Positions 1,680-64,000 of a stretch of DNA of 64,000 nt are shown piece after piece. The translations under genes and the position numbers were made by a program. The first letter of the stretch is position 1. Each line of letters starts with the position of its first letter. The notes below the pieces were generated by a model, which ran no database searches, had not been told where the DNA came from, and was given only the letters and a program-made list of their open reading frames with translations. The DNA is from an uncultured Myxococcia bacterium (GTDB lineage Bacteria; Myxococcota_A; JAVEVO01; CAYZFJ01), in assembly GCA_964477705.1 (NCBI GenBank), contig CAYZFJ010000001.1:11380-75379 (forward strand), read 5' to 3'.

Positions 1680-1702
1680 TACGCAATATTGTTTGAATGG
1701 AT

Positions 1703-10991: not shown

Positions 10992-12116
10992 ATGAAGCGA
11001 TTGCTGAAAGGCAAGGCTTTGAGCTTAATATTGGGTGCCACGGTTTTCTGGTCCATTCTGGCTGCAGGATGCACTAATTCGGGAGGAGGGGGAACCGCAG
11101 GTGGGGCTCTGGCTCTTCAGGACTATTCGAAGGAGTATGCAAAGGCCATCTGCAACTTCATGGATAGGTGTGTCGGAGAGAGCCAGATGGCTGCTGCGAA
11201 TATGCCAAGCTTTGAAGTTTGCATAGCGTCTGTTGGCAAGACTTACCAGAACACCCACTACGCAAACCTGCTTAATCTCATCCAGGCCGGGATCACTACC
11301 TTTGACTCGGCTCAGGCCCGGGAATGCGTCAATGCCATTAAAAACGCCACCTGTGATGATAGCTCCTGGTATAAGCAGATTTGTGCTGGTGTATTTCAGG
11401 GCAGCGTGGCTGTGGGCGAGGAGTGCGTAATGGACGAAGTATGCACCAACCCACAGGTCAATCATTGCCAGTTTTCAGGAGAGTGTCCGGGCGTTTGCAC
11501 ACCAAGGATTGCGTTGGGCAAGGATTGTAGTGGTGCATACGATCAGTGCGATTTTGGGACCATTTGTGTGGATGATACCTGCGTGACTGCTCCTGGAGAG
11601 GGCGAGGAGTGTGGAGCAGGGATTGAGTGTGCTGGTTCGCTCTTCTGTGTGGGAGCCACTAATGGTGCCGATGAGCCCGATGGTGAGTGCAAGTCTCTCC
11701 AGGACCTGTACATCAGGGGAGAGCTGGCCACCTGTGACATCTCGAAGAATTTCTATTGTCGGGATGGCCTGCGGTGCGAATTTAACAGGGACCCGGTCAG
11801 TGACTCCGAGGGTATCTGTATGAAAGGTGGAGCAGAGGCAAATTCCGCCTGTTATCCTTCATTCCCGGATCCCTGCCCCGATGGTTTTTATTGTCAGGTA
11901 ACTACACCGGGGCGTGCGGGCAGGTGTAACGAAGTACCTCTCTATACGCAATCTTGTCCTGAAGGCAGGTGTGCCTGGCCAGCAGTGTGTGTTGAGGGTT
12001 CATGCCTCTTGCAGGTGGAAAATGGGCAGAATTGTGGTGGCAAGAGTCCTGTATGCCACAGCAACACATGTATTAATGATATCTGTGCCGCCCCAGATCC
12101 CTGCGAAGGATTCTGA
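10992..12116 (+). CDS. Secreted Cys-rich lipoprotein
   Basis: Signal peptide with lipobox LAAGC; ~40 Cys in 374 aa arranged in repeated C-x-x-x-C / C-x-G-x-C patterns. Confidence 0.55.
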   Translation: MKRLLKGKALSLILGATVFWSILAAGCTNSGGGGTAGGALALQDYSKEYAKAICNFMDRCVGESQMAAANMPSFEVCIASVGKTYQNTHYANLLNLIQAGITTFDSAQARECVNAIKNATCDDSSWYKQICAGVFQGSVAVGEECVMDEVCTNPQVNHCQFSGECPGVCTPRIALGKDCSGAYDQCDFGTICVDDTCVTAPGEGEECGAGIECAGSLFCVGATNGADEPDGECKSLQDLYIRGELATCDISKNFYCRDGLRCEFNRDPVSDSEGICMKGGAEANSACYPSFPDPCPDGFYCQVTTPGRAGRCNEVPLYTQSCPEGRCAWPAVCVEGSCLLQVENGQNCGGKSPVCHSNTCINDICAAPDPCEGF

Positions 12117-12414
12117 TCACCCTTAAACACCACATTATAGGTTCATCCCCCTTCAATCTTCTCCTTTAGCTTTCACTTTCACACCCCCATACATTTCTTT
12201 GTACTGCCAACTTTTTGCCCTTTAACGTCCCCATCTAGCTTGTGTTCCATGACATGAGCTGAGCTTCCACCTGTAAATATTAAACAGTGTCACGTGGAAC
12301 TTTGGGTTTGTGAATATGCTTAACCGAACACACATTCGGCATGCCGTGCCTCATGTACAGGAGTCTAAGTTGGAGCAAGGACTTCTGGGGAGCAATGTTC
12401 AACAGCCAGGTGCA

Positions 12415-22100: not shown

Positions 22101-23339
22101 CCATACCTCGGACTTCTCTTTTTCCACCATCTTCTTGGCACTCTTGATGGTGGTTACATAGCCTTTCTCTTCAAGCTTGTTGTAGATGAAAGGCTTGAAC
22201 AGCTCCAAGGCCATCTTCTTGGGAAGCCCGCACTGATGCAGTCTCAGGGTAGGGCCGACCACGATGACCGATCGGCCTGAGTAGTCGACTCGCTTTCCGA
22301 GCAGGTTCTGACGGAAACGACCCTGTTTGCCCTTGAGCATATCGCTGAGGCTCTTAAGAGGTCGCTTGTTGGGGCCGGTGATGGTCTTGCCTCTCCGCCC
22401 ATTGTCCAGTAGGGCATCTACTGCCTCCTGGAGCATCCGCTTTTCGTTGCGGATGATGATCTCAGGTGCGTTCAGCTCTTGAAGTCTTTTCAGCCGGTTG
22501 TTTCGGTTGATAACTCTCCGATAGAGATCATTGAGATCGGATGTGGCAAAACGCCCGCCATCCAGGGGGACCAAAGGACGCAAATCCGGTGGAATAACCG
22601 GAATCCGTTCCATGATCATCCACTCTGGCTTGTTGTTGGAGTCCCTGAAGGCCTCCACCACCTTGAGGCGCTTCGACAGCTTCTTGCGCTTGGCCTCGCT
22701 GGTGGCCTCACGCATCTCCTGACGAAGCTCGTTTGCTAGTGCCTCAATGTCCAGGTCTTTGAGCATGTCGCGAATGGCTTCCGCACCCATGGTGGCTTTG
22801 AAAGCGTCGTATCCGAGATCATCGACCAGCTTCTGGTACCGCTCTTCGGACAAGACCTCACCCTTGCGCAGGCCAGTCAGCTTCTCATCGCCAGGATCCT
22901 GGACCATGTAGGCTACACAATACAGGACCCGCTCGACCTCTTTCAGGGTGATGTCAAGCATGTTACCGATTCGGCTTGGCAGGGATTTCAGGAACCATAT
23001 ATGGGCAACGGGTGTTGCAAGGTCGATGTGACCAAGCCTTTCACGCCGTACTTTCGATTGGATAACCTCGACGCCGCACTTTTCGCAGACAACGCCACGG
23101 TGCTTCATGCGCTTGTATTTGCCGCAGTTGCACTCGTAGTCCTTAACGGGACCGAAGATCTTAGCGCAGAATAGACCATCTCTCTCCGGCTTGAATGTCC
23201 GGTAGTTGATGGTCTCAGGCTTCTTCACTTCGCCGTGGGACCACTCTTCGATCTTCTCTGGTGATGCCAGAGAAATCCTCATTGCGCTAAATGACAATGG
23301 ATCTTTGGGCTTTTCGAAGAAACTAAGGATATCTTTCAT
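19113..23339 (-). CDS. rpoC: DNA-directed RNA polymerase subunit beta'
   Basis: 1408 aa; NADFDGD catalytic motif, Zn-binding Cys clusters, full-length collinear. Confidence 0.95.
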
Positions 23340-23601
23340 GCCGCCTCCCGGGAATTATATATTATTCCCGTGTAGGATTACTTATTGCCGACAAAGTCAG
23401 TCCAGAAGGAGGGCTCTGTGGGACTTTAGATGGAAAACATGACAGATTGGAGTGGGCTGCCGGCAACAAACAACTGAGATAATCGCAATGCCAATAGTAT
23501 TAGCTAAGCAAGAGCAACCACAACAGCATCGACAACGAGATGAATCAGATTAAGGACCAGTGCAATTGTCTGTTGCGGGCAGCCTTTCTCCGTATATTCT
23601 A

Positions 23602-26600
23602 TCAGTTGGCCCCGGCTCCTGCCGCAGCCACAGCTTCCCTTCCAGTATTCTGCCCGACGGTTTCAGCCGAAGACTTATCTGTCTTGAGCAAGCTTTCGGC
23701 TTCTTCTGTCTCCAGCAGTTCCACATCAAGAGCCAGGCTTTGCAGCTCTTTCAGCAGAACATTGAAGGACTCGGGCAGGCCACTCTCAAGGGTATTTTCG
23801 CCCTTGACGATGGCTTCGTACATTCGGGTACGACCGGAAACATCATCAGATTTAACGGTCAGGAACTCCTGGAGAGCATAGGCAGCGCCATAGGCTTCCA
23901 GCGCCCACACTTCCATTTCACCAAGCCTCTGACCACCAAACTGGGCCTTGCCACCAAGGGGCTGCTGGGTGACCAGGCTGTATGGACCGATGCTCCTGGC
24001 GTGAATCTTGTCGTCAACCAGATGGTGCAGTTTGAGCATGTAAGCAATGCCAACCGTCACCTTGTTGTGGAATGCCTCACCTGTGCGGCCATCATACAAG
24101 GTGGTCTGACCGCTTCTGGGAAGCCCGGCAAGTTCCAACATGTCCTTGATCTCGTCTTCGCTGGCTCCATCGAAAACTGGTGTAGCCAGGAAAACTCCCT
24201 TTTGCAGCTTGTGCGCCAGAGTGTGCAAGTCATCGTCAGAGAGACTATCAACCATCTTGGCCAATTCGTTGCCGTTGTAGATGGACTTGATCTTCTCTTT
24301 CACTGCCTGGGTTTGATTTGCCTCGATCAGTCTGCCGATCTGCTCTCCCAGGTTCAATGACGCCCATCCCAGGTGGGTCTCAAGGATCTGACCCACGTTC
24401 ATACGAGAGGGAACGCCAAGAGGATTGAGGACCAGGTCAACAGGTCTGCCGTCGGGCAGGTAAGGCATATCCTCTGAGGGCAGAATCTGGGCAATAACAC
24501 CCTTGTTTCCGTGACGTCCGGCCATCTTGTCGCCAATGGCCAGCTTGCGCTTGATGGCAACATACACCTTGACCATCTTGATCACGCCCGGAGGGAGCTC
24601 ATCACCCTTCTTAAGTTTGCTGATTTTGTCAGCAAATACCATCTTGATCTGCTGGATCTGATCCCGCATGTTCTCCAGGATCCGCTCCACCTTATCTTCG
24701 GTATCTCTCTCATCACCCAGAGTGATCTCTTCAAGGTACTTTTTCGGCAGAGAGGTGAGCGCCTCGACTGTGAGCACTTGCCCTTTGTTCAAAAGTACCT
24801 TGCCTGACTCATCAACAAGCCTGGCGGCAGTTTCTTTGCCGGTGAACAACTCAACCACTCGACGGTAGGCAGAGTCTTTGATGATCTTGATTTCGTCATT
24901 CTGATCTTTGAGGAGTTTAGCCTCCTCCAGATCCTCGATGTCCTTGGTTCTCTCGTCCTTGTCCGCCCCTTTACGGGAGAAAACCTTGGCATTTATGACG
25001 GTTCCAACAACACCAGGTGGCACTCGCAGGGAGCTATCCCTAACATCGCCAGCCTTTTCACCGAAAATGGCTCGGAGCAGCTTCTCTTCTGGGCTGAGCT
25101 GAGTCTCTCCCTTGGGAGTGATCTTGCCTACCAGGATATCGCCGCTCACCACCTCTGCGCCAATACGAATAATACCGCTCTCGTCCAGATCCTTGAGTGC
25201 CTCTTCACCAACGTTTGGGATGTCGCGGGTGATCTCTTCTTTGCCCAGTTTGGTATCCCGGGCGATGCACTCAAACTCTTCAATGTGGATTGACGTGTAA
25301 ACGTCATCCTTCACCAAGCGCTCACTGACGAGAATGGAGTCTTCATAGTTGTAACCGCCCCAGGGCATGAATGCGACTAGCACGTTCTGTCCCAGAGCCA
25401 GTTCTCCGGTATCGGTAGCAGAACCATCGGCCAGAATATCACCCTTCTTCACCCGGTCACCCCACTTCACAATGGGCTTCTGGTTGAGACAGGTGTTCTG
25501 GTTCGACCGCTGGTATTTGAGCAGGTTGTAAATGTCAGGCTTGGCGGACACCTCAATATCTTCCGCACTATCATCAACTTTAATGACGATACGGCCTGCA
25601 TCCACGCCCTCAACAACACCAGCATGCCGGGCTACAACGGTCACCCCTGAATCCCGGGCAACCGTATTCTCCATACCAGTTCCAATAAGCGGAGCAGCAG
25701 TACGGATAAGGGGCACTGCCTGACGCTGCATGTTAGAGCCCATCAGAGCTCTGTTGGCGTCGTCATTCTCCAGGAACGGAATCAGAGATGCGGCCACGCT
25801 CACAAGCTGGTTGGGTGAAACGTCCATAAGGGTGATATCAGAAGGAGGAGAGGTGATGAATTCACCTTCCTGTCTGCTTGATACCATTTCAGCAACAAAC
25901 TTGTTTTCGTCATCGAGCTGAGCATTGGCCTGGGCGATGATGTGATCCTTCTCCTCCAGAGCGGAATAGAAGCGCACTTCATCGGTGACCCGACCATCCA
26001 CAACGGTCCGGTACGGAGTCTCCACAAATCCGAAATCATTAACCCGGGCGAAAGTGGACAGGCTGGCGATAAGGCCGATGTTCGGTCCTTCAGGTGTCTC
26101 GATAGGACAAATTCGGCCATAGTGGGTGCCGTGAACGTCACGGACCTCAAAGCCCGCACGCTCTCTGGTCAAGCCTCCTGGCCCCAGGGCGCTAAGCCTT
26201 CTCTTGTGGGTGACCTCTGAGAGCGGGTTGGTCTGATCCATAAACTGGCTAAGCTGGCTGGAGCCAAAGTACTCCTTGACCACTGCGCTGACCGGTTTGG
26301 CATTAATCAGATCATGAGGCATGAGAGTCTCCAGTTCCTGTGACATGCTCATGCGTTCCTTGATGGCTCTTTCCATGCGCACCAATCCGATGCGATACTG
26401 GTTTTCCATCAATTCGCCCACCGCTCTGACCCGCCTGTTGCCCAGGTGGTCGATGTCGTCAATAACACCGTGCCCGTTTTTCAGGTCAATCAGGTACTTG
26501 ACGGATTCCATAATGTCCGTCTTGGTAAGGGTGGTCATGTCAACTGGAGGACCATGCTTCCAGCCGTTCTCCTGGAACTCTTCAAAATCCTTGGAACGCT

Positions 26601-27858
26601 TTTCATAGTTGAACTTAAAGTTCAACTTGATACGGCCCACCTTAGACAGGTCATACCGCTCTGCATTGAAGAACAGATTATTGAAGAGATTGCCGGCAGC
26701 TTCTTTGGTTGGTGGATCACCAGGGCGAAGTCTGCGATAGATCTCCTCGACAGCTTCATCGCTTGAGGTGATCTTGTCAGCCAGGAGGGTGTTCCTCAGC
26801 CAAGGACCAACATTCAAACCATCAATGAACAGAACTTTGATTTCGCCGATTTGGCGGATTCTGAGCTCAGCCAGATGGTCCTCGGTGATCTCTTCGTTGC
26901 ACTCGAGGAGAACCTCACCTGTTCCCTCGTCAATCACGTCCACAGCGCAGATGCGCCCGATAAGGCTCTCTTTGTCAACAGGAATCCGCTCCACACCGGC
27001 GGCTTTCATTTGCCTGACTACCTGCCGGGTGAACTTGCGGTTCTTTTTGACAATGACTTCGCCATTCTCAGGGCTGATAACGTCCATTGAAGCACGCTGA
27101 TTGCCGAGCAGATCATACTGAATGCTCTTCTCGAAACGTTCCCCATCCATAAGGAAGATGGTCTCGGTGTCATAGAAGTAGTTCAGCAGCTCCTCAGCAG
27201 TATAGCCAAGGGCTCGCAGCAGTACGGTGGCATGGAACTTGCGCCTGCGGTCAATGCGAACGTAGATGATGTCTTTGGGATCAAATTCAAAATCAAGCCA
27301 TGAACCACGGTAGGGAATAACCCTGCACGAGTACAACAGCTTGCCGCTTGAATGGGTCTTCCCTTTGTCGTGATCGTAGAAAACGCCGGGGCTGCGGTGT
27401 AACTGACTTACCACAACCCTCTCGGTGCCATTGATGATGAAGGTACCGTTTTCGGTCATCAGAGGAAGTTCTCCGAAATAGACCTCCTGCTCTTTAACAT
27501 CGCGCAGGTTACGGGTATTGCCTTCTACGTCAAAGACAACCAGACGGATCACCACCTTTACCGGGGCAGAATAGGTCATACCCCTCTGATGGCATTCTTC
27601 TACGTCATATTTCGGCTTATCAAGGTAGTACGATACAAATTCCAGACTGGCTGTGTCGTTGAAATCCTTGATAGGAAAGACGCTTTTGAACACTGCCTGC
27701 AGGCCGAATTCTTCACGCTTATCTGCGGGAAGATCTTTTTGCAGGAATTGCTCGTAAGATTTTTTCTGGATGTCAATGAGATTGGGAAGATCCATGATGT
27801 GGGAAATCTTACCAAAACTCTTGCGGACTCGATAATTGCTCTGAATGACGGACGTCAT
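23602..27858 (-). CDS. rpoB: DNA-directed RNA polymerase subunit beta
   Basis: 1418 aa; conserved rifampicin-cluster and catalytic regions; directly upstream of rpoC. Confidence 0.95.
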
Positions 27859-34876: not shown

Positions 34877-36373
34877 TTAGAGCACAGTACTATACAAGTC
34901 AACAGGCAATTGTCGCTTAATGAAGTCTATAGCCCACTGGATTTCTTCTAAGACCTGGACGTCATGTTCTGCTGCGAGGGCCTTGTGAAGGGCCTCAAGG
35001 CTTCTGTTACCGCCTGACATGCCAATGGCCCATGCCCCATGGAGACGAACAATGGGTTCTCTGTCTTCCAGGAGACAGCGGATAGCAAGGGGGAGGTGGT
35101 GGTCTGGGTCTTTCCCGTTACCCATGCAGATCAGGATGTTTCGTTTCAGTCTGGCCAAGCCGGTGCGCTTTATGGGGGTGTCGGCGAATTCACTGGTGAA
35201 CTGCTCCTGGCTCATAAACAGATGGTTGGCTGTCAGGTTTGTGTGTCCGGTGATTGGCTCTAACCCGGGAGCAATGGGCCATGGATGTGATTGGAAGAGG
35301 GCCGCCGCTCGCTGGTTAGACGGGCAGATTTCCTGGCAGATGTCGCAGCCGAACACGTGTTGCCCTATGGCTGGGCGCAGTTCCCTGGGTATGATTCCTT
35401 TAAACTCAATGGTCAGGTAGGCGATGCACTTGCGGGCATCAACTATTCCAGGACTGATGATGGCTGAGGTTGGGCAGGCTTTGAGGCATCTATTACATTT
35501 AATACATGCGATACGATCGTGTTGGTTGTGTTGGTCGCATTGGTTGCGTGGGGCGGGCAAGGGGGATGAGCGGGATGAGGGGGAGGGAGATGAGGGGGAG
35601 GGGGCGGCGGTGTGTGCGGGGTGCGCAGGGGGTATGGGGGGCTCTGTCTGGTGTTGTGTAGCAGGCTGGGTGTTGTCTTGAGAGGGGGCGGGAAAGAATG
35701 GTCCAGCGGGGTCCATGGCCAGAGTGGTAATGATGGTGGCCAAGAAGACGCTGGTTCCGTAAATGGGGTGGTGGAGTAAAGCAGAATAGCCCCACTCTCC
35801 CAGACCAGCACGGATTGCCCATGCCCTCTCCAGTACTGGCCCAGCATCACACCACCCATGGTGGATGTGGTCGGGAGCCATGTTGCGGAGCAAGCCCAAC
35901 AGGGTATCCAGTTTGTCGCCAATGACCTGGTGGTAGTCTTTGCCCCGAGCGTATGTGGCAACCTGGAACGAGCCCGATACGGTTGTGGGAGTGGTGTTTG
36001 GTGGTGTGGACAAACCCGCTGAGTCATGCTCAATGATTGGGCCATAGGGGAGAGCCAGGCTGATCACAGACCCGGTGTTGCCGATGAGTTGCCGGGGATC
36101 CTGCCTGATAGCCAGGCTCCTCTCCATGAATCTCATCTCGGCACCACAGCCAGCCTCCAGCCACTGTTTCAGCCTATTCTCTCCGTCTATGGCATCCACC
36201 TTGCAGATGCCTACGCTAAAACCCAGATTCAGAGCCTCTTGTGTGATGGTGTGGGAGGTGGGGGGTTGAGTTTGGGGTTGGGGTTGGGTGAGTGGATTGA
36301 GCATTGGCTGCTCTTCTTCGCATGTGGAGTCCGATTGGTTGGTGGTGTTTCTCTCTGGGGTTGTGATCTTCAT
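34877..36373 (-). CDS. queG: Epoxyqueuosine reductase QueG with low-complexity P/T/Q/S-rich insertions and C-terminal HEAT-like repeats
   Basis: Two 4Fe-4S Cys clusters (CIKCNRCLKACP, CDICQEICP), C-terminal PIVRLHGAWAIG HEAT motif; start set to ATG 36373 (MKITTPERN). Confidence 0.75.
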   Translation of the reverse strand: MKITTPERNTTNQSDSTCEEEQPMLNPLTQPQPQTQPPTSHTITQEALNLGFSVGICKVDAIDGENRLKQWLEAGCGAEMRFMERSLAIRQDPRQLIGNTGSVISLALPYGPIIEHDSAGLSTPPNTTPTTVSGSFQVATYARGKDYHQVIGDKLDTLLGLLRNMAPDHIHHGWCDAGPVLERAWAIRAGLGEWGYSALLHHPIYGTSVFLATIITTLAMDPAGPFFPAPSQDNTQPATQHQTEPPIPPAHPAHTAAPSPSSPSPSSRSSPLPAPRNQCDQHNQHDRIACIKCNRCLKACPTSAIISPGIVDARKCIAYLTIEFKGIIPRELRPAIGQHVFGCDICQEICPSNQRAAALFQSHPWPIAPGLEPITGHTNLTANHLFMSQEQFTSEFADTPIKRTGLARLKRNILICMGNGKDPDHHLPLAIRCLLEDREPIVRLHGAWAIGMSGGNRSLEALHKALAAEHDVQVLEEIQWAIDFIKRQLPVDLYSTVL

Positions 36374-51676: not shown

Positions 51677-54600
51677 GTGAAGAATCCTGATCAATTTCGC
51701 CATACCCTATTGATTTTATTAATATTTCAATTTTCTCTACTAATCTTCTTCGGTGCTTTGGGGGGCTGTGGTGGAGATCAGAATCAGGTTGAGCTGAAAC
51801 CGGATGGAGCCATCCTAAATGGTGACGCATCGTGGGCGGCTGGGGATGCGCAATTCCAGGGTGGTTGCAGTGACGGGGAGTCTTTTTGTTTGGAGAGCGG
51901 TTGTGTCGATTTGCTCCATGACTCAGCCCATTGCGGGGAATGTGGCAATGAGTGTGATTCGGACTATGAATGTACAAATGGCTTTTGTATCTTGGCTTGC
52001 CCAGAAAACCAAGCATCTTGTGGTGATCAGTGTGTCAATCTTGCCAAGGATCTGGAACACTGCGGTGAGTGTAACAATAAATGCCCTGCAGGATACTGGT
52101 GCGAAGAAGGGGACTGTTTCTTGTTTTGTCCAGAAAACCAGACATCTTGTGGGGGGCAGTGTGTCAATCTTGCCAAGGATCCGGGACATTGTGGAGCATG
52201 CGGCATCTTTTGTAGACAGGGTCAGGTCTGCGTCAATGGTGAATGCACCTACAGTTGCCCCATTGATCAGACCGTCTGTGGCTCCCAGTGTGTGAACCTA
52301 GCCTCTGATCCCTTTAATTGTGGCCAGTGTGGGGAGGACTGCTCCGATGGAATGGTCTGCTCTGAGGGAGAATGCAATATCCATTGTGCCGTTGGCTTTC
52401 ATCAATGCGGGAGCAGTTGTGTAAACCTGCAGATTGATCGCAAACACTGTGGTGAGTGTAATGGAAAGTGTCCACCCGGTGGGCTTTGTTCTGGTGGTGA
52501 ATGCATAGTGAGTTGTCAACTCGGACTCACCGACTGTAATGGCAGTTGCGTTGATTTGCTGGATGATCGAGCTAATTGCGGGGTTTGTGACCATGCTTGT
52601 GAGGGGGGTATGGTCTGTGACAATGGGGAATGTGCATTGGATTGCCCTACACCCACAGAAGAGTGTGCCGACACGTGCGTTAATACCAATTCGGACCGTT
52701 TTCACTGTGGCCAGTGTAGTCTTGAGTGTCCGCCGGGAATGGTCTGTGACAGCGGCCAATGTACCCTCATCTGCTCATTGGACCTTACCGATTGTGAAGG
52801 TAGCTGTGTGGATCTGATGACTGATTTCAGTCACTGTGGCCAGTGTGATCTCCAGTGTTCCCAGAATCAAGAATGCAGTGATGGCTCTTGTAATTGTCGG
52901 GAAGGCTTTGTGGAATGTGACAAGGTTTGTGTCGACCTGAAAACGGATTTGGACCACTGTGGCCAGTGTGACGTCCTGTGCGAGGTTGGGTCAGAATGTA
53001 TGGCTGGGCTCTGCATAGTTCCGGTGGTTGGTGTCTCTCTGGATGCCATCCTGCTGGATTTGGCTACAGGAGCCACCCAACAACTGCTAGCTACAGTTAT
53101 CCCCGCTCAGGCAACCAACAAGGCCCTCATCTGGTCCTCCAGCCATCCCCAGATCGCCACCATTGACGAGAATGGAGTGGTGGAGGGGATCAGTCCTGGT
53201 CAGGCTCAGATCAGCGTGCAGACCGTGGATGGAGGGTACTTCGCTACCTGCATGGTCAACGTGAAGATATTGGTGAGTGGAGTAGATATTTCCCTGGCAG
53301 AATTACTGCTCAGCCCGGGCCAGACCACCCACCTCCATGCTGCCGTGAAGCCTGCCACCGCCTGCAACCAATCTCTTACCTGGCAGAGCAGCAACAGCCA
53401 GGTGGCAACTGTGGACGGGAACGGCGTGGTCACTGCCAAGGCTGATGGTCAGGCATCAGTCACGGTCACCACCGTTGATGGAGGTTTCCAGGCATCGTGT
53501 CTGGTCACAGTGGTAACAATCCAAGTTACAGGGGTGGTGCTGATGCCCGGTGAGATTCATGTCGGCCGGGGGGCGGAATATGCACTGACAGCGGTAGTGA
53601 GCCCCGCCGATGCCTCTAACAAGACTGTGGTCTGGTACAGCAGCAACCCTGCCGTGGCCAGTATCAGCCAGGATGGAGTGGTGACTGGAGTGGAGAAAGG
53701 GTCGGCCACTATTATGGTGATCACTGGTGATGGCGGATTCCATGATACTGGCACGGTCCATGTGCAGATATCTGTAGAGAGGGTAGATCTCTACTTGGAC
53801 GCTTTGTACATGGAGCAGGGTGATTATGGGACCATTTTTTTTAGAATTTTCCCGGATGATGCTACCAATAAGACGGTCATCTGGGAATCCAGTGATCCAT
53901 CCATCGCTACTATTACAGACTCTGGCATAGTCACTGCCTGCAATGTGGGAGTCACCACAATCACTGTGACCAGCGTGGATGGCAGTCACACGGATTCACT
54001 CCAAATGTTTGTATGGCTTTAATCTGCGGGAAATTACCATAGACCCGTCATCAGCCACATTGGAGGTGGGTCAGACCATTACCCTGGTGCCTGTCTTCGA
54101 TCCGTCTGACATCCTGAACCAAAGCGTGAGTTGGAGCACCAGTGACCCTGCGGTGGCAAAGGTCGATTCAGAGGGGGTGGTGACGGGTCATGCTGTAGGT
54201 CAGGCCACTATCACTGCGCTCAAGCCGGGCACGGGAGTGAGTGGCTCCTGCAAGGTACATGTGTTCACCCGGGTTACTGGTGTTACCATCACCCCGAAGA
54301 CGCTGGAGTTGACCTTGGGGCAATCGGCATCCATGACTGCCACTGTGATACCGCCTGATGCACGTGTCAGGGATGTAGTGTGGACCAGCCACAATGATCA
54401 GATCGCCATGGTGAGCAGTGATGGTTTGGTTACCGGAGTGGGCATGGGGAGAACCCGAATCACTGTTGCCACCGTAGACGGGGCGTTGTCTGACAGTGCG
54501 GACGTGGAGGTGATAATCATTCCGGTGGAGGGGGTGACCATCACTCCCACTTCGCTGAACCTGCATGTAGGTAGTGCCGGGCAGTTAAGCGCCACCATCA

Positions 54601-55800
54601 TTCCGGCTGACGCCACCGATCAGTCGGTCACCTGGGCGACTGGAATCCTGCAGTTGCCACTGTTGATGCCAACGGACTGGTCACTGGACTGGGTGTTGGT
54701 ACGACTACCATCTCTGCCACCTCCCATGATGGAAATTCAGTGGCTGTCGCCATGTTCCAAGTAAGCGCCCTGGTTGAGAGTGTGTCTGTCAGCCCAACTG
54801 AGGCTTATGTTCTGATTAATCAATCAACCCAGTTGACCGCCACGGTGTTGCCTGCCAATGCCAATAACAAGGCGGTAACCTGGTCATCGTCTGCCAATTC
54901 CGTAGCCATGGTCAATGCTTCCGGCCTGGTGACCGGGGTGGGTCTTGGCAATGCCACTGTTACAGTGAAAACGGTGGATGGTCATTTTGTCGCTACAGCT
55001 TCAGTACGAGTAATCAGCATTCCGGCAGGGTATACGTTGATTCCTTCCGGTGCTTTCACCATGGGCAGCCCGCCCGATGAACCGTTTTGGTATTATGATG
55101 AAACCCAGCATCAGGTGACCCTTACAGTCCCTTTCCTGATGAAGATTACAGAGGTAACCCAGGGAGAATGGCAGACCATAATGGGTTATAATCCATCAGC
55201 ATTACAGTCGTGTGGCTCCAATTGCCCTGTGGAGCAGGTTTATTGGCATGAAGCGTTGGCCTATGCCAATGCACTGTCCGCTGCTGAGGAGTTGCCCCAA
55301 TGTTTCACCTGTACGTGGAGTGATGACAGAGCGAACTGTAGCCTCAAGTTGCAATATGGCAAACCTTATGACTGCCCAGGCTATCGGCTGCCCACGGAGG
55401 TAGAGTGGGAGTATGCTGCCCGGGTTGGTACACCACCACAGCCATCCATACTGGACCGATAACCAGTCAGGCGTCATGTCCCAACATGAATGCTGCAGGG
55501 TGGTATTATTACAATTCAGGTGGTACCACTCATACTGTAGGGAGTAAAGCAGCCAATGCCTGGGGCCTGTATGACATGCATGGCAACGTGTGGGAGTGGA
55601 CCTGGGATTGGTATCAGTTCGACTTGGGCAGCATGGCAGTGACAGACCCTTATGGCCCATCAATGGGCGAACTCCGGGTTGCGCGGGGCGGTTCGTATCG
55701 CGAGAGCGGAGGTTACTGCCGGGCAGCGTTTTGCGGCCCCAGCAATCCTGATGAACGCGACATTTCCGTAGGTTTCCGCCTCGCCCGGTCTGTATTGTAG
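51677..55800 (+). pseudogene. Disrupted gene for a large secreted protein: ~12 tandem 38-aa Cys-rich repeats + multiple Big_2 Ig-like domains + C-terminal FGE-sulfatase (SUMF1-like) domain; reading frame broken at ~54010-54030, ~54640 and ~55420-55470
   Basis: Four consecutive ORFs (51677-54022, 53979-54764, 54740-55462, 55405-55800) whose translations continue the same domain series across frame changes. Confidence 0.5.
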
Positions 55801-56388: not shown

Positions 56389-58965
56389 ATGGCCAATTTC
56401 AAGTATGTCAAATGGTTCGAGAATGTGGGTAATGAAGATGTACCGACAGTGGGCGGGAAAAATGCTTCCCTGGGCGAAATGATTCAGCACCTGCGCACCG
56501 AGAATATCCGGGTGCCCGGGGGATTCGCCACTACCTCCGACGCCTACTGGACCTACCTGGCCTACAACAACCTCACGGGAAAGATGGGCGACATCCTCGC
56601 CTCAATGCGGGAAAACCGCACCTCTCTGAACAGGGCCGGCGAAGAGGTGAGGCAGGCTATTCGCCATGGAATCTTCCCGGAAGAGGTTGAGACCGAAATT
56701 CACGACGCATACAGGGAACTTTCCCGCAGGTATGAGCAGGAGGACCTTGCCGTTGCCGTCAGGAGCAGCGCCACTGCAGAAGACCTTCCAAGCGCCAGCT
56801 TCGCCGGTCAGCAGGAGACCTTCCTCAATGTGCGGGGTGCAGCGGATCTGCTGGCAGCTTGCAGGGACTGCTACGCCTTCCTCTTTACCGACCGGGCAAT
56901 CGTCTACAGGGAGCGGCTTGGCTATGATCACATGAAGGTGGCCTTGTCTGTGGGTGTGCAGAAAATGGTCCGCTCCGATAAAGCGGGAGCGGGCGTCATG
57001 TTCTCACTGGACACGGATACCGGATTCCCTGATGTGGTGGTGATCAATGCTTCGGTTGGGCTTGGTGAAACGGTTGTTCAGGGCGCTGTCACGCCTGACG
57101 AGTACCGTGTGTTCAAACCTAGGCTCGGAATAGGTGTCCCTCCGAGGGAAAAGGCAGCCGCAAGAGAAGGCGGGAGAGTTGGGGCAACACCGGGAGGCGT
57201 ATCAGGAAGCACATCAAGAACAGCCGCCAGAGCAGAAGCTGCCGGAGCAGAGATGGCAGCCCGGGGCACGCCTGCTACTCCTGTGGCCACCCGTGGCGCA
57301 GCAGCAGAAGCAGAAGCGAGCTCCACCCGATACAGGCCGATCATTGAAAAACGGCTGGGCGTCAAGGAGAAGATGATTGTCTATGCCGAAGGAGGCAAGA
57401 ATCGCACCAAGACCATCGACACCCCTGCTGTACAGCGGAAGCAGTTCGTCCTGTCGGATGACGAGATTATCACCCTCGCACGCTGGGCAACCGCCATCGA
57501 GCGACACTATGGTCGGCCGATGGATATGGAGTGGGCCAAGGATGGTGACTCGGGAGAGCTCTATTGTGTGCAGGCTCGACCCGAGACGGTTTTTTCGCAG
57601 AAGAAGACTCATGCCTTGAAGACATACCATCTGGACCCAACCGGTCATACCCCAATCCTGACAGGCGTGGCGGTCGGCGAGTCGATTGCGGCGGGGCGGG
57701 TGAAAGTCCTGCACCGCCCTGAACAGATGCATCTCTTCCAGGATGGCGAAATCCTTGTCACGGAGCGGACTGATCCCGACTGGGGGGAGATCATGAAGAA
57801 GGCGGTAGCCATCATCACCGACCATGGGGGAAGGACCAGCCATGCCGCAATCGTCAGCAGGGAGCTGGGCATACCGGCGGTGGTGGGGACCGGGAATGCC
57901 ACCATCACCCTGCGTGATGGGCAGGAGATAACCCTGAGTTGCGCCGAGGGGGAGGAAGGACGCATCTATGAGGGTCATCTCCAGTACGAGGAACATGAAC
58001 TGGATACCTCCACACTGCCCAGACCTCCAGTCCAGTTCATGATCAACCTGGCCACCCCACAGGCTTTGTTCCGGTGGTGGCAGCTCCCGGTGAATGGCGT
58101 GGGCCTGGCGAGGATGGAATTCATCATCAATAACTGGATCAAGATCCACCCGCTCGCCCTGGCCAGGTTCAATCAGTTGCGGGATGACAATACCAATGCC
58201 AGAGCGCAGATTGAACAACTCACAGAAGGCTATGGAGACAAGACGGAATTTTTTGTCGACAAGCTCTCCATGGGTATTTCCATGATCGCCGCATCGCAGT
58301 ACCCCGACCCCGTGATTGTGCGGACGAGCGATTTCAAGACCAACGAGTACGCCAAGCTGATTGGTGGCGCCCAATTCGAGCCCCATGAGGAGAACCCGAT
58401 GCTGGGGTTCAGGGGCGCATCCAGGTACTACAGCGACCGCTACAGAGACGGATTCGCCCTGGAATGCAGGGCGGTGAGGAAAGCACGTGATGTAATCGGG
58501 CTCGACAACATCGTGGTCATGATTCCCTTTGTCCGCACCGTCGGCGAAGCGGACCAGGTGTTGCAGGAGATGGCCGTTCACGGCCTTCAGCGCGGCCAGG
58601 ATGGTCTCCAGGTCTACATGATGTGCGAGGTGCCCTCCAACGTTTTCCTTGCCCGGGAATTCGCCGACCGCTTTGACGGATTTTCCATCGGGAGCAACGA
58701 TCTCACCCAACTCATCCTGGGGGTGGATCGGGACTCCGAGACATTGCGGTCACTATTCGATGAACAGAATGAGGCGGTGAAGATTGCCATCAGCCAGGTG
58801 ATACAGAGTGCCCACGAGAAGGGCGTAAAGGTGGGGCTGTGCGGGCAGGCTCCCAGCGATTACCCCGACTTCGCCCACTTCCTGGTAGATGAGCATATAG
58901 ATTCAATCTCCCTCAACCCGGACAGCGTCCTCCCACTACTTCAGGGTTGGGGGAAGAGAGGTTGA
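56389..58965 (+). CDS. ppsA: Phosphoenolpyruvate synthase with ~70-aa Ala/Gly/Arg-rich insertion
   Basis: MANFKYVKWFENVG...GGKNASLGEM N-terminus; TDHGGRTSHAAIVSRELGIPAVVG phosphohistidine domain; C-terminal TIM-barrel motifs. Confidence 0.85.
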   Translation: MANFKYVKWFENVGNEDVPTVGGKNASLGEMIQHLRTENIRVPGGFATTSDAYWTYLAYNNLTGKMGDILASMRENRTSLNRAGEEVRQAIRHGIFPEEVETEIHDAYRELSRRYEQEDLAVAVRSSATAEDLPSASFAGQQETFLNVRGAADLLAACRDCYAFLFTDRAIVYRERLGYDHMKVALSVGVQKMVRSDKAGAGVMFSLDTDTGFPDVVVINASVGLGETVVQGAVTPDEYRVFKPRLGIGVPPREKAAAREGGRVGATPGGVSGSTSRTAARAEAAGAEMAARGTPATPVATRGAAAEAEASSTRYRPIIEKRLGVKEKMIVYAEGGKNRTKTIDTPAVQRKQFVLSDDEIITLARWATAIERHYGRPMDMEWAKDGDSGELYCVQARPETVFSQKKTHALKTYHLDPTGHTPILTGVAVGESIAAGRVKVLHRPEQMHLFQDGEILVTERTDPDWGEIMKKAVAIITDHGGRTSHAAIVSRELGIPAVVGTGNATITLRDGQEITLSCAEGEEGRIYEGHLQYEEHELDTSTLPRPPVQFMINLATPQALFRWWQLPVNGVGLARMEFIINNWIKIHPLALARFNQLRDDNTNARAQIEQLTEGYGDKTEFFVDKLSMGISMIAASQYPDPVIVRTSDFKTNEYAKLIGGAQFEPHEENPMLGFRGASRYYSDRYRDGFALECRAVRKARDVIGLDNIVVMIPFVRTVGEADQVLQEMAVHGLQRGQDGLQVYMMCEVPSNVFLAREFADRFDGFSIGSNDLTQLILGVDRDSETLRSLFDEQNEAVKIAISQVIQSAHEKGVKVGLCGQAPSDYPDFAHFLVDEHIDSISLNPDSVLPLLQGWGKRG

Positions 58966-59298
58966 AAAGGCGGCTTTCAACAGCCCCTGCTGGCGGCCGC
59001 AGTACCGTTTGAAGGATATCTCTCAAGATTCCTCCAGTAAATGCTGACAAACAGAGCGTCTAGATCTTACACATACCTCTTGAATGACCATGAGCCATCA
59101 GTTCAGGTTCCTTCCCCGAATGTTCAAACCGTTGTAATCCCTTGAATTGTCATAAAATTATTTCAAATCAACTTACAATAACCAGTTGGAAGGTTCTGCC
59201 CTTTGTTCACGCCACCAAAGTAATACCTTGACAACCAAATCTCATCAAAGTTACATCTAAGACTCATTTTTCAACAACATCCTCAGGGGGAAACACTG

Positions 59299-59499
59299 AT
59301 GATGGACAAGTCACTTCTTGATGCCGGCTGCCGTGTTGCGTTTGCTGCACTGCTGCATGATCAAGGTAAATTTGCTGAACGGGCAGGTATGCCCAACTCC
59401 TGCAAAGTCAGGGCTCTAGGGCTAATAAACGGGAGCAAAGGGCAGCGATTTAGCGCTTGTTGGCTCAAGGGTAATACGACCGAAGAGCAGACCACATGA
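59299..59499 (+). pseudogene. 66-aa ORF carrying a Cas10/Cas3-type HD-domain N-terminal motif (AALLHDQGKFAERAG); probable truncated HD nuclease remnant or mini-protein; stop overlaps cas6 start (ATGA)
   Basis: LLHDxGKF is the start of the HD motif of Cas10/Cas3 HD domains; ORF ends after 66 aa; GGGGGA RBS. Confidence 0.3.
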
Positions 59500-60611
59500 A
59501 CCATTCTCTGAGTCTAATCAGCAATGATGCCAACATTCAGGCACAGGCTGCATCCCTCCTGGACCTGTCATCCAGCTTAACTTTGGGCAGGATCACTTTT
59601 ACCTTCTGTTCCGAGGATAATACTCGGCTTCCCCCTTTTCTTGGCTCTACCCTGAGGGGAGCTCTCGGTGGTGCCCTGCGCTCCATTGCCTGTGTGCGTG
59701 AGAGAGGTACCAACTGCCTCACTTGTGCCTTGTGTGAGGGGTGTGCCTATGCCTATCTGTTTGAAACTCCTGTCCCCTCAGCGGCCAACCGTCTGCGCCG
59801 TTTGCAGCATCTGCCTCATCCATTCATTATTGAGCCGCCTCCTCTCCAGCCAGGCGGGCTGAATCTTGAGCCTGGCTCCCTGCTCACCTTTTCTATGGTC
59901 CTGATAGGTAAAGCTACCACCTACCTCCCATATGTCCTGTTGGCAGCGTCCCGTATGGGGGCAGCCGGGTTGGGTGCCGAGCGTGCCGTCTTCCAGTTGA
60001 TAAAGGCTGAATCGGATTTGCCAGGATGGCTGATGGATGCAGTGGAAAGCGGTGAGAGCCAGAGAGACGACAGCGAACTGGCGGTTCAAGCCGCCCCGTC
60101 GTCTCTGCTCCTCTGGACGCCGGATTCAGCCGCTATCAATGGGCTCCCCAAGGTGACCCCATCCGGGCTGCAAAAGGTTCTGTCCATGCAACCAACTGAG
60201 GCAGGTGCCGCTGGCGAGCGAGTTCAGGTTGAGTTTACCACCCCTGTCAGGCTCGTTGAGCAGGGCCGAGTTGTCAGCAATCTGGAATTTAGAGTATTTA
60301 TCCGGTCTTTGCTAAGTCGTGTCTCTTCTTTGGCCATCTTCCATTGTGGGCAAGATGAACAGGATTTGGACTACCGGAGCTTGGTTGATGCTGCTGATAT
60401 GGTCAATGAGACAGAGCAAGATCTCTCCATTCGACCTCTCCAGCGGTGGAGTCAGCGTCAACAGCGGACTATTGGCCTTGATGGCCTCCTGGGAGGGGTT
60501 GCCTGGAGAGGAGAGATCATGCCGCTCCTGCTGCCCTTGATTAGAATTGGCCAGATTGTTCATGTGGGTAAAGGGACCGTCTTTGGCCTCGGCCGTTATC
60601 GCCTCTTGTAG
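59496..60611 (+). CDS. cas6: Cas6-like RAMP endoribonuclease with Zn-finger-like cysteines
   Basis: C-terminal glycine-rich loop VHVGKGTVFGLGRYRLL (G-x-G-x5-G-x-G); CLTCALCEGC cysteine cluster; adjacent to cas1. Confidence 0.5.
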   Translation: MNHSLSLISNDANIQAQAASLLDLSSSLTLGRITFTFCSEDNTRLPPFLGSTLRGALGGALRSIACVRERGTNCLTCALCEGCAYAYLFETPVPSAANRLRRLQHLPHPFIIEPPPLQPGGLNLEPGSLLTFSMVLIGKATTYLPYVLLAASRMGAAGLGAERAVFQLIKAESDLPGWLMDAVESGESQRDDSELAVQAAPSSLLLWTPDSAAINGLPKVTPSGLQKVLSMQPTEAGAAGERVQVEFTTPVRLVEQGRVVSNLEFRVFIRSLLSRVSSLAIFHCGQDEQDLDYRSLVDAADMVNETEQDLSIRPLQRWSQRQQRTIGLDGLLGGVAWRGEIMPLLLPLIRIGQIVHVGKGTVFGLGRYRLL

Positions 60612-60725
60612 AAAAGCAACCAGGTACAGAGGCGATCACAACCGCTCGATAGGTGCACGCACATTACGTTGTATTCTCTGACGAGCAATTCGCACACACC
60701 ATGGCAACATTTCGGGAGGTAGTTC

Positions 60726-63323
60726 ATGGATAAACTGGAGAAGCCCCCACTCGATACATCCTCTTTCGCCGAGTCCGCCCCTTTACCATCACCACCAGGG
60801 CTGCCCGAACAGCTTAAAATCCTGATGAGGGATGGGCTCTTTGACCAGGCCGCAGACCTGCTTCAGGCAACCGACACTAAAGCAGAGATAGACGCGCCCC
60901 TCCACCACCAATTGGCCGTCCTGGCCGAAGAGTTGGGCGTCCTGGACAAGGCGGTGCTTGAGTATAATCTCTCACTGCGTGATGTGCCTGAACAACCCGC
61001 TGTTCTTCTGCGTCTTGCTCGATTACGTCGTGACCAGGGCGATGGGGATAGAGCACTGAGGGCCTATGGAAGATTGCTTCAGCTTGAGCCAGAAAATGTA
61101 CAAGCACGCATAGAGGCTGCCGACGTCTTGGTCGAGCTTGGCAGGTATGGTGAGTCGGCCAACCTCTTGCGTGTTGGCCTTGCTTATTCGGAGAATGTGC
61201 AGTTAAAGACTGCCCTGCGGCGCCTGAACATTGTTGATGGAAGTAGGGTAAGGTCTGCGACTGCTTGTGGGTTCTCAGATGCTGGTACAGGAGATGATTA
61301 TGACGGCACCAGTACCAGCGCTGACCCAAACAGTGATTATAGCGACAATAGTGGTAATGACGAGAAGCGAATGGGCGATGGTGCGGTTCTGGGGTTGGGC
61401 ACAGGAGTGGAGGCTGGGCCTAAGGCTGGGCCTAACGCTGTACCAGTAATTGGGTCTGACTGGGGGGCAAATCAGGAAACAGGGAGGGTGGATCCAGGCG
61501 CAAACCGTGGCAGTCTTGCTTTGCGGTCTGATTGCCTGGTACCTGATGATGTGGATTTAGTTGTGTTTTCTTCTCTGTTTGCGGGTCGAGAAGGCTTTTA
61601 TGCCAGACAGTGGGCAAGCGCATCTGGTAAACACGGTTATACGCCAATAGCAGAGCCATTCACTCCTCACGTTGCCCGTGGCCACCTGCTTGGCAATCAT
61701 ACGATTGGCATTTATCCGGTTCGGATGGATCATTCTGCTCTGTTTCTCGCTTTTGATATTGATATTGCCAAGTTTGCTTTGGGAAGGTGGAACGGTGCTG
61801 GCAGCGTTGTTGGCAGCGGTGTTGGTGAGGGTAAGAGTGGGGCGTCTGGAGGTCGTGCTGCCTTGCCCGGCCATCCTATGTTGCGTCTCGCACATCAGGT
61901 CGCTGTTGGTCTGGTGAGGGCAGCGGCATCCCTTGGTGTCCCAGCCTATCTTGAAGACTCTGGCAGCAAAGGCCGCCATGTCTGGATCTTCTTTGAGACT
62001 CCCATACCGGCAGTTGCAGCCAGAAGAATTGGCAATGCAATTATCGCAGGCTCCCCCGTGGCATGTCCCCCGGAAATTACTATTGAGGTGTTCCCCAAAC
62101 AGAATCGGGTGGATAAGGATGGTGGTCTTGGCAACCTGATTAAGCTGCCCCTCGGTATTCACCTTGTTTCAGGAAGTCGCAGCCTGTTTCTGGATGAAGG
62201 TGGCAGGCCGGTTCGAGAGCAATTAGCCTACATCCGCTCGATAAAGCGCCTCTCACGGGTGGCTGTGGCAGACTTGCTCCGTGGGCTATCTGTGGTTGAT
62301 GATCCTCTCGTCACAAGAGGGAGCGGGGGACACATGCCCAGGCAAGGGCAGCTGGCAAGTCGCCAATCAGTAAATATAAAGAGCAGTCGTGGTTATGAAG
62401 TAGCAGGGCTGGCTGATGAGATGGGGGTTTGCCCTGGTGTGGTTGATGAGGTTGATGATTTACCTGAGCTTGATGAGCTTGATGAGCTTTGTGGAAGCTA
62501 CTCGGAGGCAGGCAATCGGGCCCATGGTGGTGCAGCGGCGGGGAGTGGACTTAGGCCCGGTTCTAGGCCCGGGTCTGCACAATATGTGGGCCCATTAGGT
62601 GCTGCCGGACCTGAGGTGCCACAGTACAACCTTGATGCCGATGAAGAGTTTCTATGGCTTACCCAAAAATGCCCGGTTATTGCCCAGATTGTGCGCCGGG
62701 TGCGAGAGGACAGGATTCTGCCCAACTCCCATCGCCTGATTGTTACCTATACTGTGGGGCATCTCCCAACCGGGCCCCAGGCAGTGAACACCATATTATC
62801 GTTTGCCCTCAATACGGATCGATCCTTGTTCCTTAAGTCTACGCTTAAGGGTAATCCCATGAGTTGTCCCAAGATCCGTTCTCATCTATCAGATTTGGCA
62901 AGCGCAGTGGAATGTAATTGTCGTTTTAATATGAGAGATGGCATGTATCCCACTCCTCTTTTGCATCTACAGTCGTTGAGATTGAGCGGAACCATAGGAG
63001 CTAGCCCGGGAGAGCTTGGCATGTTGCAGGTGGAACGAATGGTGTCTGATCTTTTCCGGCTTCGTGGCGAAATTGAGCGCAGCGAGAGATTGGCAAGGCA
63101 GATTGAGTCCCGGCTACTTGAGGTGATGAATGAGCACCAAGTGCGGGAATTGAGCGTGCCATCGGGGATTCTGCGGCTGCAGCCTGCTTCGGGCGGCCAG
63201 GAACATGACGAGCTTGTATTGGGACTGCCGGGTGAGAGTGTGTGTATGGCTGGTGGGGGGAGCATGGTTGTAGGGACGGGCGTAGGAGAAGATGTGGCAG
63301 CGACCACAAAAGAAACCAGATAA
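60726..63323 (+). CDS. TPR-repeat + primase-polymerase (archaeo-eukaryotic primase superfamily, CAPP-like) protein with C-terminal Cys/His-containing domain
   Basis: AEP motifs: FLAFDIDI (DxD), SGSKGRHVWIFF (sGxGxH), NLIKLPLGIHLVSGSR (motif III); N-terminal ~200 aa TPR-like helical repeats; GGGAGG RBS. Confidence 0.6.
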   Translation: MDKLEKPPLDTSSFAESAPLPSPPGLPEQLKILMRDGLFDQAADLLQATDTKAEIDAPLHHQLAVLAEELGVLDKAVLEYNLSLRDVPEQPAVLLRLARLRRDQGDGDRALRAYGRLLQLEPENVQARIEAADVLVELGRYGESANLLRVGLAYSENVQLKTALRRLNIVDGSRVRSATACGFSDAGTGDDYDGTSTSADPNSDYSDNSGNDEKRMGDGAVLGLGTGVEAGPKAGPNAVPVIGSDWGANQETGRVDPGANRGSLALRSDCLVPDDVDLVVFSSLFAGREGFYARQWASASGKHGYTPIAEPFTPHVARGHLLGNHTIGIYPVRMDHSALFLAFDIDIAKFALGRWNGAGSVVGSGVGEGKSGASGGRAALPGHPMLRLAHQVAVGLVRAAASLGVPAYLEDSGSKGRHVWIFFETPIPAVAARRIGNAIIAGSPVACPPEITIEVFPKQNRVDKDGGLGNLIKLPLGIHLVSGSRSLFLDEGGRPVREQLAYIRSIKRLSRVAVADLLRGLSVVDDPLVTRGSGGHMPRQGQLASRQSVNIKSSRGYEVAGLADEMGVCPGVVDEVDDLPELDELDELCGSYSEAGNRAHGGAAAGSGLRPGSRPGSAQYVGPLGAAGPEVPQYNLDADEEFLWLTQKCPVIAQIVRRVREDRILPNSHRLIVTYTVGHLPTGPQAVNTILSFALNTDRSLFLKSTLKGNPMSCPKIRSHLSDLASAVECNCRFNMRDGMYPTPLLHLQSLRLSGTIGASPGELGMLQVERMVSDLFRLRGEIERSERLARQIESRLLEVMNEHQVRELSVPSGILRLQPASGGQEHDELVLGLPGESVCMAGGGSMVVGTGVGEDVAATTKETR

Positions 63324-63343
63324 GCACTGATAAGCACCAAACA

Positions 63344-64000
63344 ATGTCTTCAATTCTTTATGTAACTGAACAGGGGAGTGAACTCGGCATACAGCGTACC
63401 CGTCTGGAGGTCAGGAAGGGTGGACGTGTGCTGAACTCCGTGCGTTTTGAAGATCTTGGTCAAGTAGTCTTGTGCGGCAATGTACAGCTCTCCATTCAGG
63501 CAATACGCTCTCTGCTGCGTAATGGAATCGACACGGTGTTTCTTACAATGGGGGGCTCGTTTCTAGGCAGGCTCTCAGGACCGATGGGCAAGAATGTGGA
63601 GCTGCGTCACCTTCAGCACCAGCTCCTTGATGATCCTGAACAGACCCTTGAGATCGCCAGGCGAATGGTAGCAGGCAAGCTGGCTAATTCGGTTGCTTTG
63701 CTCCGTCGTTATCAAAGGAGCAGACAAGATGACCGGATTGCCCGACCCATGGTAGCTATCAGATTGCTCGGAGAGAGATTAGCCGAGGTAGATAACCTTG
63801 ATGCCCTGAGAGGGATGGAAGGCAAAGCCGCTGCCGACTATTTCAGTGCCTTTCCTGCATTGCTCATGGCCCCGGGAATGGATTTCGTCAAGCGGGTAAG
63901 AAGGCCGCCGCCTGATCCGGTCAATATTCTTTTGTCTCTCGGGTACACAATGCTTGGAAACCTGGTGCAGGGGATGGTTGAGCTGGCAGGCTTGGACCCA
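63344..64000 (+). CDS. cas1: CRISPR-associated endonuclease Cas1, 3' truncated by window edge
   Basis: MSSILYVTEQGSELG N-terminus; RVRRPPPDPVNILLSLGYTML conserved Cas1 segment; 20 nt after Prim-Pol gene. Confidence 0.8.
   Translation, partial: MSSILYVTEQGSELGIQRTRLEVRKGGRVLNSVRFEDLGQVVLCGNVQLSIQAIRSLLRNGIDTVFLTMGGSFLGRLSGPMGKNVELRHLQHQLLDDPEQTLEIARRMVAGKLANSVALLRRYQRSRQDDRIARPMVAIRLLGERLAEVDNLDALRGMEGKAAADYFSAFPALLMAPGMDFVKRVRRPPPDPVNILLSLGYTMLGNLVQGMVELAGLDP

Follow-up and report, generated by a model that had tools for sequence, protein, structure and literature searches.

A 66-codon reading frame in front of cas6 probably derives from the start of a type III-A cas10 gene

The cas locus (58966-64000) starts directly behind the housekeeping gene ppsA and occupies the end of the 64,000-nt stretch of DNA that was analysed here as a whole (the window). 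It consists of an intergenic region, a short open reading frame (mini-ORF), cas6, a gene for a CRISPR-associated primase-polymerase (CAPP) and the first part of cas1 (Table 1). Cas6 was identified by Pfam PF10040 (CRISPR_Cas6; 55 bits against a cut-off of 25, 1.4e-14), and 175 homologues with PF27225 and PF10040 align with it over residues 17-371; all 41 of the 41 invariant columns of a 24-sequence alignment that includes the window Cas6 are present. A genome scan with the single window Cas6 protein as query gave no match. CAPP was assigned to type A1 by NCBIfam NF040561 (266 bits, cut-off 200) and shows an AEP-TOTE domain (Pfam, 2.9e-45) together with TPR repeats. Beginning 20 nt after CAPP, cas1 is recognized by Pfam Cas_Cas1 (1.1e-61), with 68% identity to the Cas1 of locus L089. 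No CRISPR array was found within the 64-kb window. PpsA and CAPP are both interrupted by long inserts of low complexity that are rich in Ala, Gly, Arg and Ser. That of PpsA (about residues 255-325) cuts the PPDK_N match into two stretches, and CAPP has 865 aa compared to 575-875 aa (mostly about 620-800) in homologues with E<1e-100, which align in separate blocks.

Table 1. Positions of features in the window and of cas10 stubs and partial cas6 copies in related loci (numbering of the window or of the locus named)
Locus	Feature	Position	Strand	Remarks
Window	ppsA	56389-58965		Pfam PPDK_N and PEP-utilizers
Window	Intergenic region ppsA/mini-ORF	58966..59298	+	333 nt, 43% GC
Window	Shine-Dalgarno sequence AGGGGGA	59285..59291	+	8 nt before the mini-ORF ATG; read from the sequence
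Window	Mini-ORF	59299-59499	+	66 codons
Window	Segment derived from cas10 (csm1)	59299..59400	+	codons 1-34; start codon and HD dyad (H20, D21)
Window	Mini-ORF tail	59401..59499	+	codons 35-66 and stop; without detectable homology
Window	ATGA overlap of mini-ORF stop and cas6 start	59496..59499	+	4 nt; coupling-type configuration
Window	cas6	59496..60611	+	full length, 371 aa
Window	CAPP, TPR-AEP type	60726..63323	+	865 aa
Window	cas1, first 219 codons	63344..64000	+	runs past the window end
L056	cas10 stub	12286-12375		directly before RAMP genes, then a Cmr2 gene
L023	cas10 stub	12725-12790		directly before RAMP genes, then a Cmr2 gene
L016	cas10 stub	5315-5413		directly before RAMP genes, then a weakly Cas10-like gene
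L038	cas10 stubs	3931-4002 and 4333-4467		directly before RAMP genes
L083	cas10 stub	12772-12858		28 aa; its stop codon shares ATGA with the start of another, full-length cas10
L024	cas10 stub	12127-12237		before an HD-less Cas10
L030	cas10 stub	1145-1216		
L033	cas10 stubs	14721-14840 and 14833-14904		
L052	cas10 stub	8606-8836		
L053	cas10 stubs	13245-13340 and 14110-14208		
L071	cas10 stub	11063-11140		
L092	cas10 stub	1541-1753		70 aa, motif HDAGK
L093	cas10 stub	1487-1699		70 aa, motif HDAGK
L043	partial cas6 3' copies	4425-4658 and 5332-5568		
L052	partial cas6 3' copy	7451-7636		
L034	partial cas6 3' copy	11510-11608		
L070	partial cas6 3' copy	11776-11919		
L053	partial cas6 3' copies	10796-10881 vs 11675-11760		
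L033	partial cas6 3' copies	10884-10926 vs 14779-14821		

Elsewhere in the window, four successive, slightly overlapping ORFs on the plus strand (51677-54022, 53979-54764, 54740-55462 and 55405-55800) encode Cys-rich repeats and repeated beta-rich modules, the C-terminal part being similar to ORFs of L079; they may represent one large surface-protein gene broken by frameshifts, either as a pseudogene or due to an assembly error. On the minus strand (19113-27858), two ORFs of about 1400 aa with 69-70% identity to ORFs of a Syntrophorhabdus MAG (L073) are, by their size, probably rpoB and rpoC, which points to a relative of Syntrophorhabdus as the source of the window.

The product of the mini-ORF is MMDKSLLDAGCRVAFAALLHDQGKFAERAGMPNSCKVRALGLINGSKGQRFSACWLKGNTTEEQTT. 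The original prediction had described a 66-aa ORF with a ribosome-binding site and a stop codon fused to the start of cas6, and the reading frame, the AGGGGGA and the ATGA were indeed all found, with the stop codon TGA at 59497-59499 overlapping the cas6 ATG at 59496-59498. A Logan contig from an independent assembly (L001, 976 nt) is 100% identical over 58946-59921, so that neither of the two mini-ORF junctions is an artefact of one assembly.

We were interested in the origin of this reading frame, and tblastn with the mini-ORF against 80 genome loci encoding relatives of the window Cas6 led to the first codons of large ORFs adjoining cas6, among them the Cas10 of L036 (LLNATCRVALAGMLHDIGKFAERA; 75% over 24 aa) and a protein of L022 with the N-terminus MMDETIL--KIALAGLMHDIGKFAERAGM. 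The matched ORFs encode 810-950 aa with Cas10 palm2, Csm1_B and HD domains (Pfam), and the alignment to the full-length Cas10 proteins runs Met-to-Met over residues 1-31/34. When all 1785 stop-to-stop frames of the window were compared with an HMM of Cas10 N-termini, only the mini-ORF was detected (E=1.4e-7; next best E=2.5). From 1.84 billion proteins searched exhaustively with phmmer, nine Cas10-type N-termini like LLDASCRVAFAALLHDLGKFAERA were obtained (E 1e-5 to 8e-4), and a metagenome scan seeded with these nine gave 80 loci, most of which encode 860-915-aa proteins with end-to-end matches to the Csm1 model TIGR02578 (E about 1e-200). The best relative, the Csm1 of L094, is 81% identical over residues 1-31 of the mini-ORF, and an HMM of 57 full-length Csm1 proteins from this closest family gave 46.5 bits (E=1.5e-11) at model positions 1-34. 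Alignments with P0216 (64% over 36 aa) and P0210 (60% over 42 aa) end by residue 40-41, and pairwise Cas10 alignments in general reach about codon 40 (59420). With the mini-ORF as query, a word-indexed search gave no protein but the mini-ORF itself among 5.8 billion. P0208 (72 bits, E=1.5e-15) was rejected as a relative: it is a 991-aa tandem-repeat protein with 18 copies of SRPGKFAERGGSANSRCRKV, and as a single repeat gives only 23 bits, the match reflects chance multiplied by repetition. P0209 is likewise repetitive.

Therefore, from the matches of the family HMM, tblastn and phmmer, the similarity is specific for Cas10/Csm1, begins at the initiator methionine and spans about 34-40 residues, with the mini-ORF as the only frame of the window that shows such start-anchored homology. 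The homology supports the mini-ORF as the 5' end of a type III-A cas10 of the Csm1 type. The similarity thus goes beyond the LHDxGK hexapeptide, from residue 1 to about residue 34-40 (E=1.5e-11). The original prediction had named a Cas10/Cas3 HD motif, of which the Cas10 part is borne out by Cas10-specific relatives, whereas the likeness to Cas3 is that of a generic motif of the HD superfamily (13 bits vs 43). The curated library models are not significant on their own, with 12.7 bits against 170 for TIGR02578 (E=0.036; positions 2-25 of 753), 13 bits against a cut-off of 43.45 for the Cas3 HD model TIGR01596 (E=0.081) and E=0.23 for the Pfam HD domain. Taken alone, these values (E 0.036 to 0.23) would suit a chance ORF containing an HD-like hexapeptide, but the family HMMs (E=1.4e-7 and 1.5e-11) already refute such an origin, and the match is anchored at the start codon, lies in the sole such frame of the window and is located inside a type III-associated cas operon, which leaves chance with practically no probability.

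The mini-ORF peptide contains a single His. Fitting to the HD fold (PF01966) led to 12.2 bits, with a gathering threshold of 22, and covered 19 of 116 profile positions. The columns conserved to at least 90% in the relatives (H74, H76, D120, H129 and H130) are absent or substituted, the motifs H..HAA.T, DS and HH.P of their HD domain are missing, and the residue after the HD dyad is Gln, compared to Leu (49), Ile (20) or Val (11) in 80 of 80 full-length relatives. From the residues that it carries, the product cannot be a working HD nuclease and is not to be annotated as such. Because the later HD residues are absent and a Gln stands at an always-aliphatic position, the mini-ORF is to be regarded as a gene remnant and not as a minimal nuclease. 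Two explanations had been offered originally: a decayed effector remnant, which agrees with a Csm1-type N-terminus without continuation and with the later HD residues gone, and a deliberately minimal HD peptide, which is contradicted by the single His, the missing later HD residues, the 19/116 positions and the Gln substitution.

Downstream of the Cas10-like segment, the tail scored -1.6 bits with the HD-domain HMM, and 967 of 2000 shuffled sequences scored as high or higher. In no frame did the tail match Cas10 proteins or ORFs of 88 related loci. A placement of the tail on the later HD motif 'LINAAAxHHxP' by MAFFT is an artefact of forced alignment, as shown by the same HMM score and shuffles. 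The idea of a remnant of the gene that precedes cas6 in relatives was dismissed as well, the local alignments to the C-termini scoring 15-27, which is noise level, and the mini-ORF is not related to the 110-aa ORF that precedes cas6 in L002. Cas10 proteins and all ORFs of related loci, used as queries on the three forward and the reverse frames of 58966-59800, revealed no frameshifted continuation of cas10. The search of all frames for further Cas10 pieces that had been proposed with the original prediction was run within the window and gave no further piece: with 25 Cas10 queries, matches in the window were confined to 59284-59466, except for 35339-35497 (E=7.6e-4), an isolated stretch of 34% identity in an unrelated 564-aa ORF that was attributed to chance. 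Neither these 25 Cas10 proteins nor the plus-strand ORFs of 172 related loci revealed a further window sequence of Cas10, Csm or Cmr, and the palm/cyclase (Cas10-Cmr2_palm2) and Csm1_B domains are not found in it.

A complete type III-A locus is likewise missing in the 64 kb, with no similarity to Csm or Cmr, and no effector genes were found in the 59 kb upstream of the mini-ORF. As the window breaks off within cas1 at 64000, effector genes may be located further downstream or elsewhere. A comparable arrangement was observed in L085, a Latescibacterota chromosome (OZ241362.1, 10001-20939), where housekeeping genes are followed by cas6, a Cas10-type HD protein, a 581-aa protein without Pfam match, CAPP, cas1, cas2 and, directly after cas2, a CRISPR array in which a 37-nt repeat occurs at least 54 times. 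The Cas10-type HD protein stands alone, has 178 aa and carries YD in place of HD, and there are no effector genes within 10 kb. This independent parallel is an effector-less cas6-CAPP-cas1-cas2-CRISPR locus that includes a shortened HD piece of cas10.

In the Csm1 family closest to the stub, cas10 comes first and a Cas6 of this family follows 4-6 kb downstream in at least 22 loci, the usual order being cas10-csm2-5-cas6; L099, for example, shows cas10-csm2-RAMP-?-RAMP-cas6-Card1. The mini-ORF is probably a 5' relic of cas10/csm1 whose remaining part was removed by deletion or module replacement, and which would now act at most as a translated leader. Retained from cas10 would be the Shine-Dalgarno sequence, the start codon and the first 34-40 codons or so to just past the HD dyad, and presumably also the promoter region upstream of the stub; the rest of cas10, and by extension the csm genes too, would have been lost by deletion or module replacement, which brought the stub next to sequence that ends at the start of cas6. 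The stub-cas6 arrangement could have arisen by a single deletion that began at about codon 35-66 of cas10 and extended to where the gene before cas6 ends, and we infer this deletion history from the gene orders. A simple internal deletion is not the sole possible history, because L002, which harbours the closest Cas6 relative (44% identity), has the opposite order with cas6 before cas10. A closely related genome with an intact ancestral locus was not found.

Alternatively, a cas6-CAPP-cas1(-cas2-array) module could have entered cas10 at its 5' end and duplicated this end, in which case the mini-ORF would be the left copy and an intact cas10-csm would be located beyond the window. The source contig (75.8 kb) does continue up to 11.8 kb past the window, related loci show cas10 5' and cas6 3' ends as diverged direct repeats around small-gene cassettes, and in one locus (L032) cas6 is followed by about 8 kb of genes and then by CAPP. 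The known duplicates flank cassettes of 0.4-4 kb, however, and not whole adaptation modules, the 64 kb contain a single Cas10-like segment, L085 offers a parallel that has no effector nearby and its array directly after cas2, and the degenerate HDQGK suggests an old, unconstrained copy. Altogether, we consider such an insertion unlikely.

For the relic of cas10 left by deletion or module replacement, the sequence features make a passive role in translation the likeliest. The mini-ORF shows the characteristics of a coupled leader, namely a Shine-Dalgarno sequence and start codon of its own and a stop/start overlap with a cas6 that has no G-rich Shine-Dalgarno sequence; ATGA or GTGA overlaps with the preceding gene are common at the cas6 starts among relatives. 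Ribosomes would start at the Shine-Dalgarno sequence of the mini-ORF, stop at the ATGA and re-initiate on cas6, and the former initiation region of cas10, presumably together with its promoter, would now drive cas6-CAPP-cas1. The cas operon presumably has its promoter in the region 58966-59298. This region contains a perfect TTGACA at 59228-59233 with no consensus -10 hexamer; a consensus scan found no sigma-70 promoter upstream of the mini-ORF, and Rfam no RNA family. Both the translational coupling of the mini-ORF to cas6 and the use of this promoter are predictions from the arrangement of signals, according to which the mini-ORF is now probably no more than a leader that is translated ahead of the genes for Cas6, the primase-polymerase and Cas1.

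Of the 80 Cas6-anchored genome loci, about 11 contain similar stubs; these loci come mostly from MAGs of anammox Planctomycetota and Nitrospirota. Two metagenome contigs have such stubs as well. In the genome loci, the stubs are frames of 22-82 aa in which a Csm1-type Cas10 is represented by no more than its first 20-32 residues (...EYQTVVLGALLHDIGK...), and they are located directly upstream of unrelated modules such as RAMP/Cmr2 genes, another cas10 or an HD-less cas10. The stub of L092, which is independent, matches the window stub with 61% identity over 41 aa, and in L092 and L093 the stop codon of the stub overlaps (ATGA) a gene with a RAMP-like N-terminus (MKEWKLDVSFATPAFLGDAEQKGAWRTPPFKALLRQWWR...) and no Pfam match. 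The DNA of L056 and L023 is 86% identical from a point within the stub into the Cmr-type module; as this homology does not start upstream of the stub, promoter retention is not the reason why these two stubs persist.

The recurrence of the stubs might also be taken as a sign of a functional micro-protein derived from the Cas10 N-terminus, i.e. a minimal HD peptide or a regulator which would, for example, bind a partner or complement an HD-less Cas10. The mini-ORF has kept its start codon behind a strong Shine-Dalgarno sequence as well as the residues H-D-G-K, comparable stubs occur in several lineages, with L016, L038 and L053 sharing the derived ending ...VGDVGKEG, and the stub of L024 directly precedes an HD-less Cas10. 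Against this, about 35 residues with one helix-turn and a single His, lacking H..HAA.T/D/HH, would not form an HD metal site (Pfam HD 12 bits vs cut-off 22), the tails of the stubs are wholly different from one another, the invariant aliphatic residue is lost in the window stub and in L092, and no homologue of the whole 66 aa is present among 5.8 or 1.84 billion proteins. A function as micro-protein is therefore very unlikely in our opinion.

Partial copies also exist for the other gene, as 3' ends of cas6 (...HVGKGTSFGLGKY) are found between cas6 and cas10, flanking small inserted genes, and the partial cas6 3' and cas10 5' ends form diverged direct repeats around small cassettes. In L033 and L052, in-frame chimeras of a Cas10 N-terminus and a Cas6 C-terminus are joined at LHD(V/I)GK / GTSFGLGKY, and since they join at the similar motifs LHD(V/I)GK and LHVGKG, recombination at the conserved ends of cas10 and cas6 is suggested. 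The recurring stubs look like scars of the exchange of modules and cassettes. Extensive module shuffling of type III systems has been discussed (PMC12669027). A tentative and rather doubtful extension would be that cas10 5' and cas6 3' stubs in general are recurrent scars of type III exchange rather than random debris, in which cas10, with its conserved HD-motif end, and cas6, with its G-loop end, supply the recombination arms and the stub is retained since, as a leader ORF, it passes ribosomes to the newly joined gene, here cas6-CAPP-cas1. No description of cas10 5' stubs was found in the literature searched.

By itself, the mini-ORF is most likely an ordinary gene remnant (pseudogene fragment) that would serve as a coupling leader ORF. 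Its presence would imply that a type III-A effector operon, since removed from this position, either was the ancestor of the cas6-CAPP-cas1 operon or became joined to it. The recurrence of cas10 stubs is a modest and possibly new lead on the reshuffling of type III systems. Module shuffling in type III has until now been deduced for the most part from incongruent trees (PMC12669027), and stubs together with cas6 3' copies would provide datable breakpoints at the sequence level.

Compared to Csm1 (TIGR02578), the mini-ORF shares the extreme N-terminus, the HD dyad and the GKFAERA motif, but represents only about 4% of the protein and lacks the remainder of the HD domain as well as the palm/cyclase, zinc-finger and C-terminal domains. 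With the HD domains of Cas3 (TIGR01596) and PF01966 it has the generic hydrophobic-HD-x-GK motif in common, whereas the scores stay at 13 vs 43 and 12 vs 22 bits, respectively, and all of its specific relatives are Cas10. Genes coupled by a stop/start overlap (ATGA), like leader ORFs, are a known pattern, which the mini-ORF resembles by its strong Shine-Dalgarno sequence, the 4-nt overlap and the cas6 without such a sequence; in contrast to usual coupled genes, the upstream ORF is here a gene fragment and not a complete gene, and the coupling is predicted. Type VII Cas14 carries a Cas10 remnant domain, reflecting reductive evolution of type III (PMC12669027), and is thus similarly a case of a Cas10 fragment that survived the loss of the type III effector; its remnant, however, is a folded domain in a functional effector, while the stub of the window is a separate 66-aa frame that gives no hint of a structural function. 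The CAPP-TPR class, its association with type III and operons in which CAPP is followed at once by cas1 have been described (Zabrady et al., 2021; PMC8211822). The window agrees with these CAPP-Cas1-Cas2 operons in having a TPR-AEP CAPP of type A1 and then immediately cas1, and differs from them in that cas6 and the cas10 stub directly precede CAPP: the five closest CAPP loci are CAPP-cas1-cas2, none of the five with cas6 or a stub in front, and only L085 is comparable.
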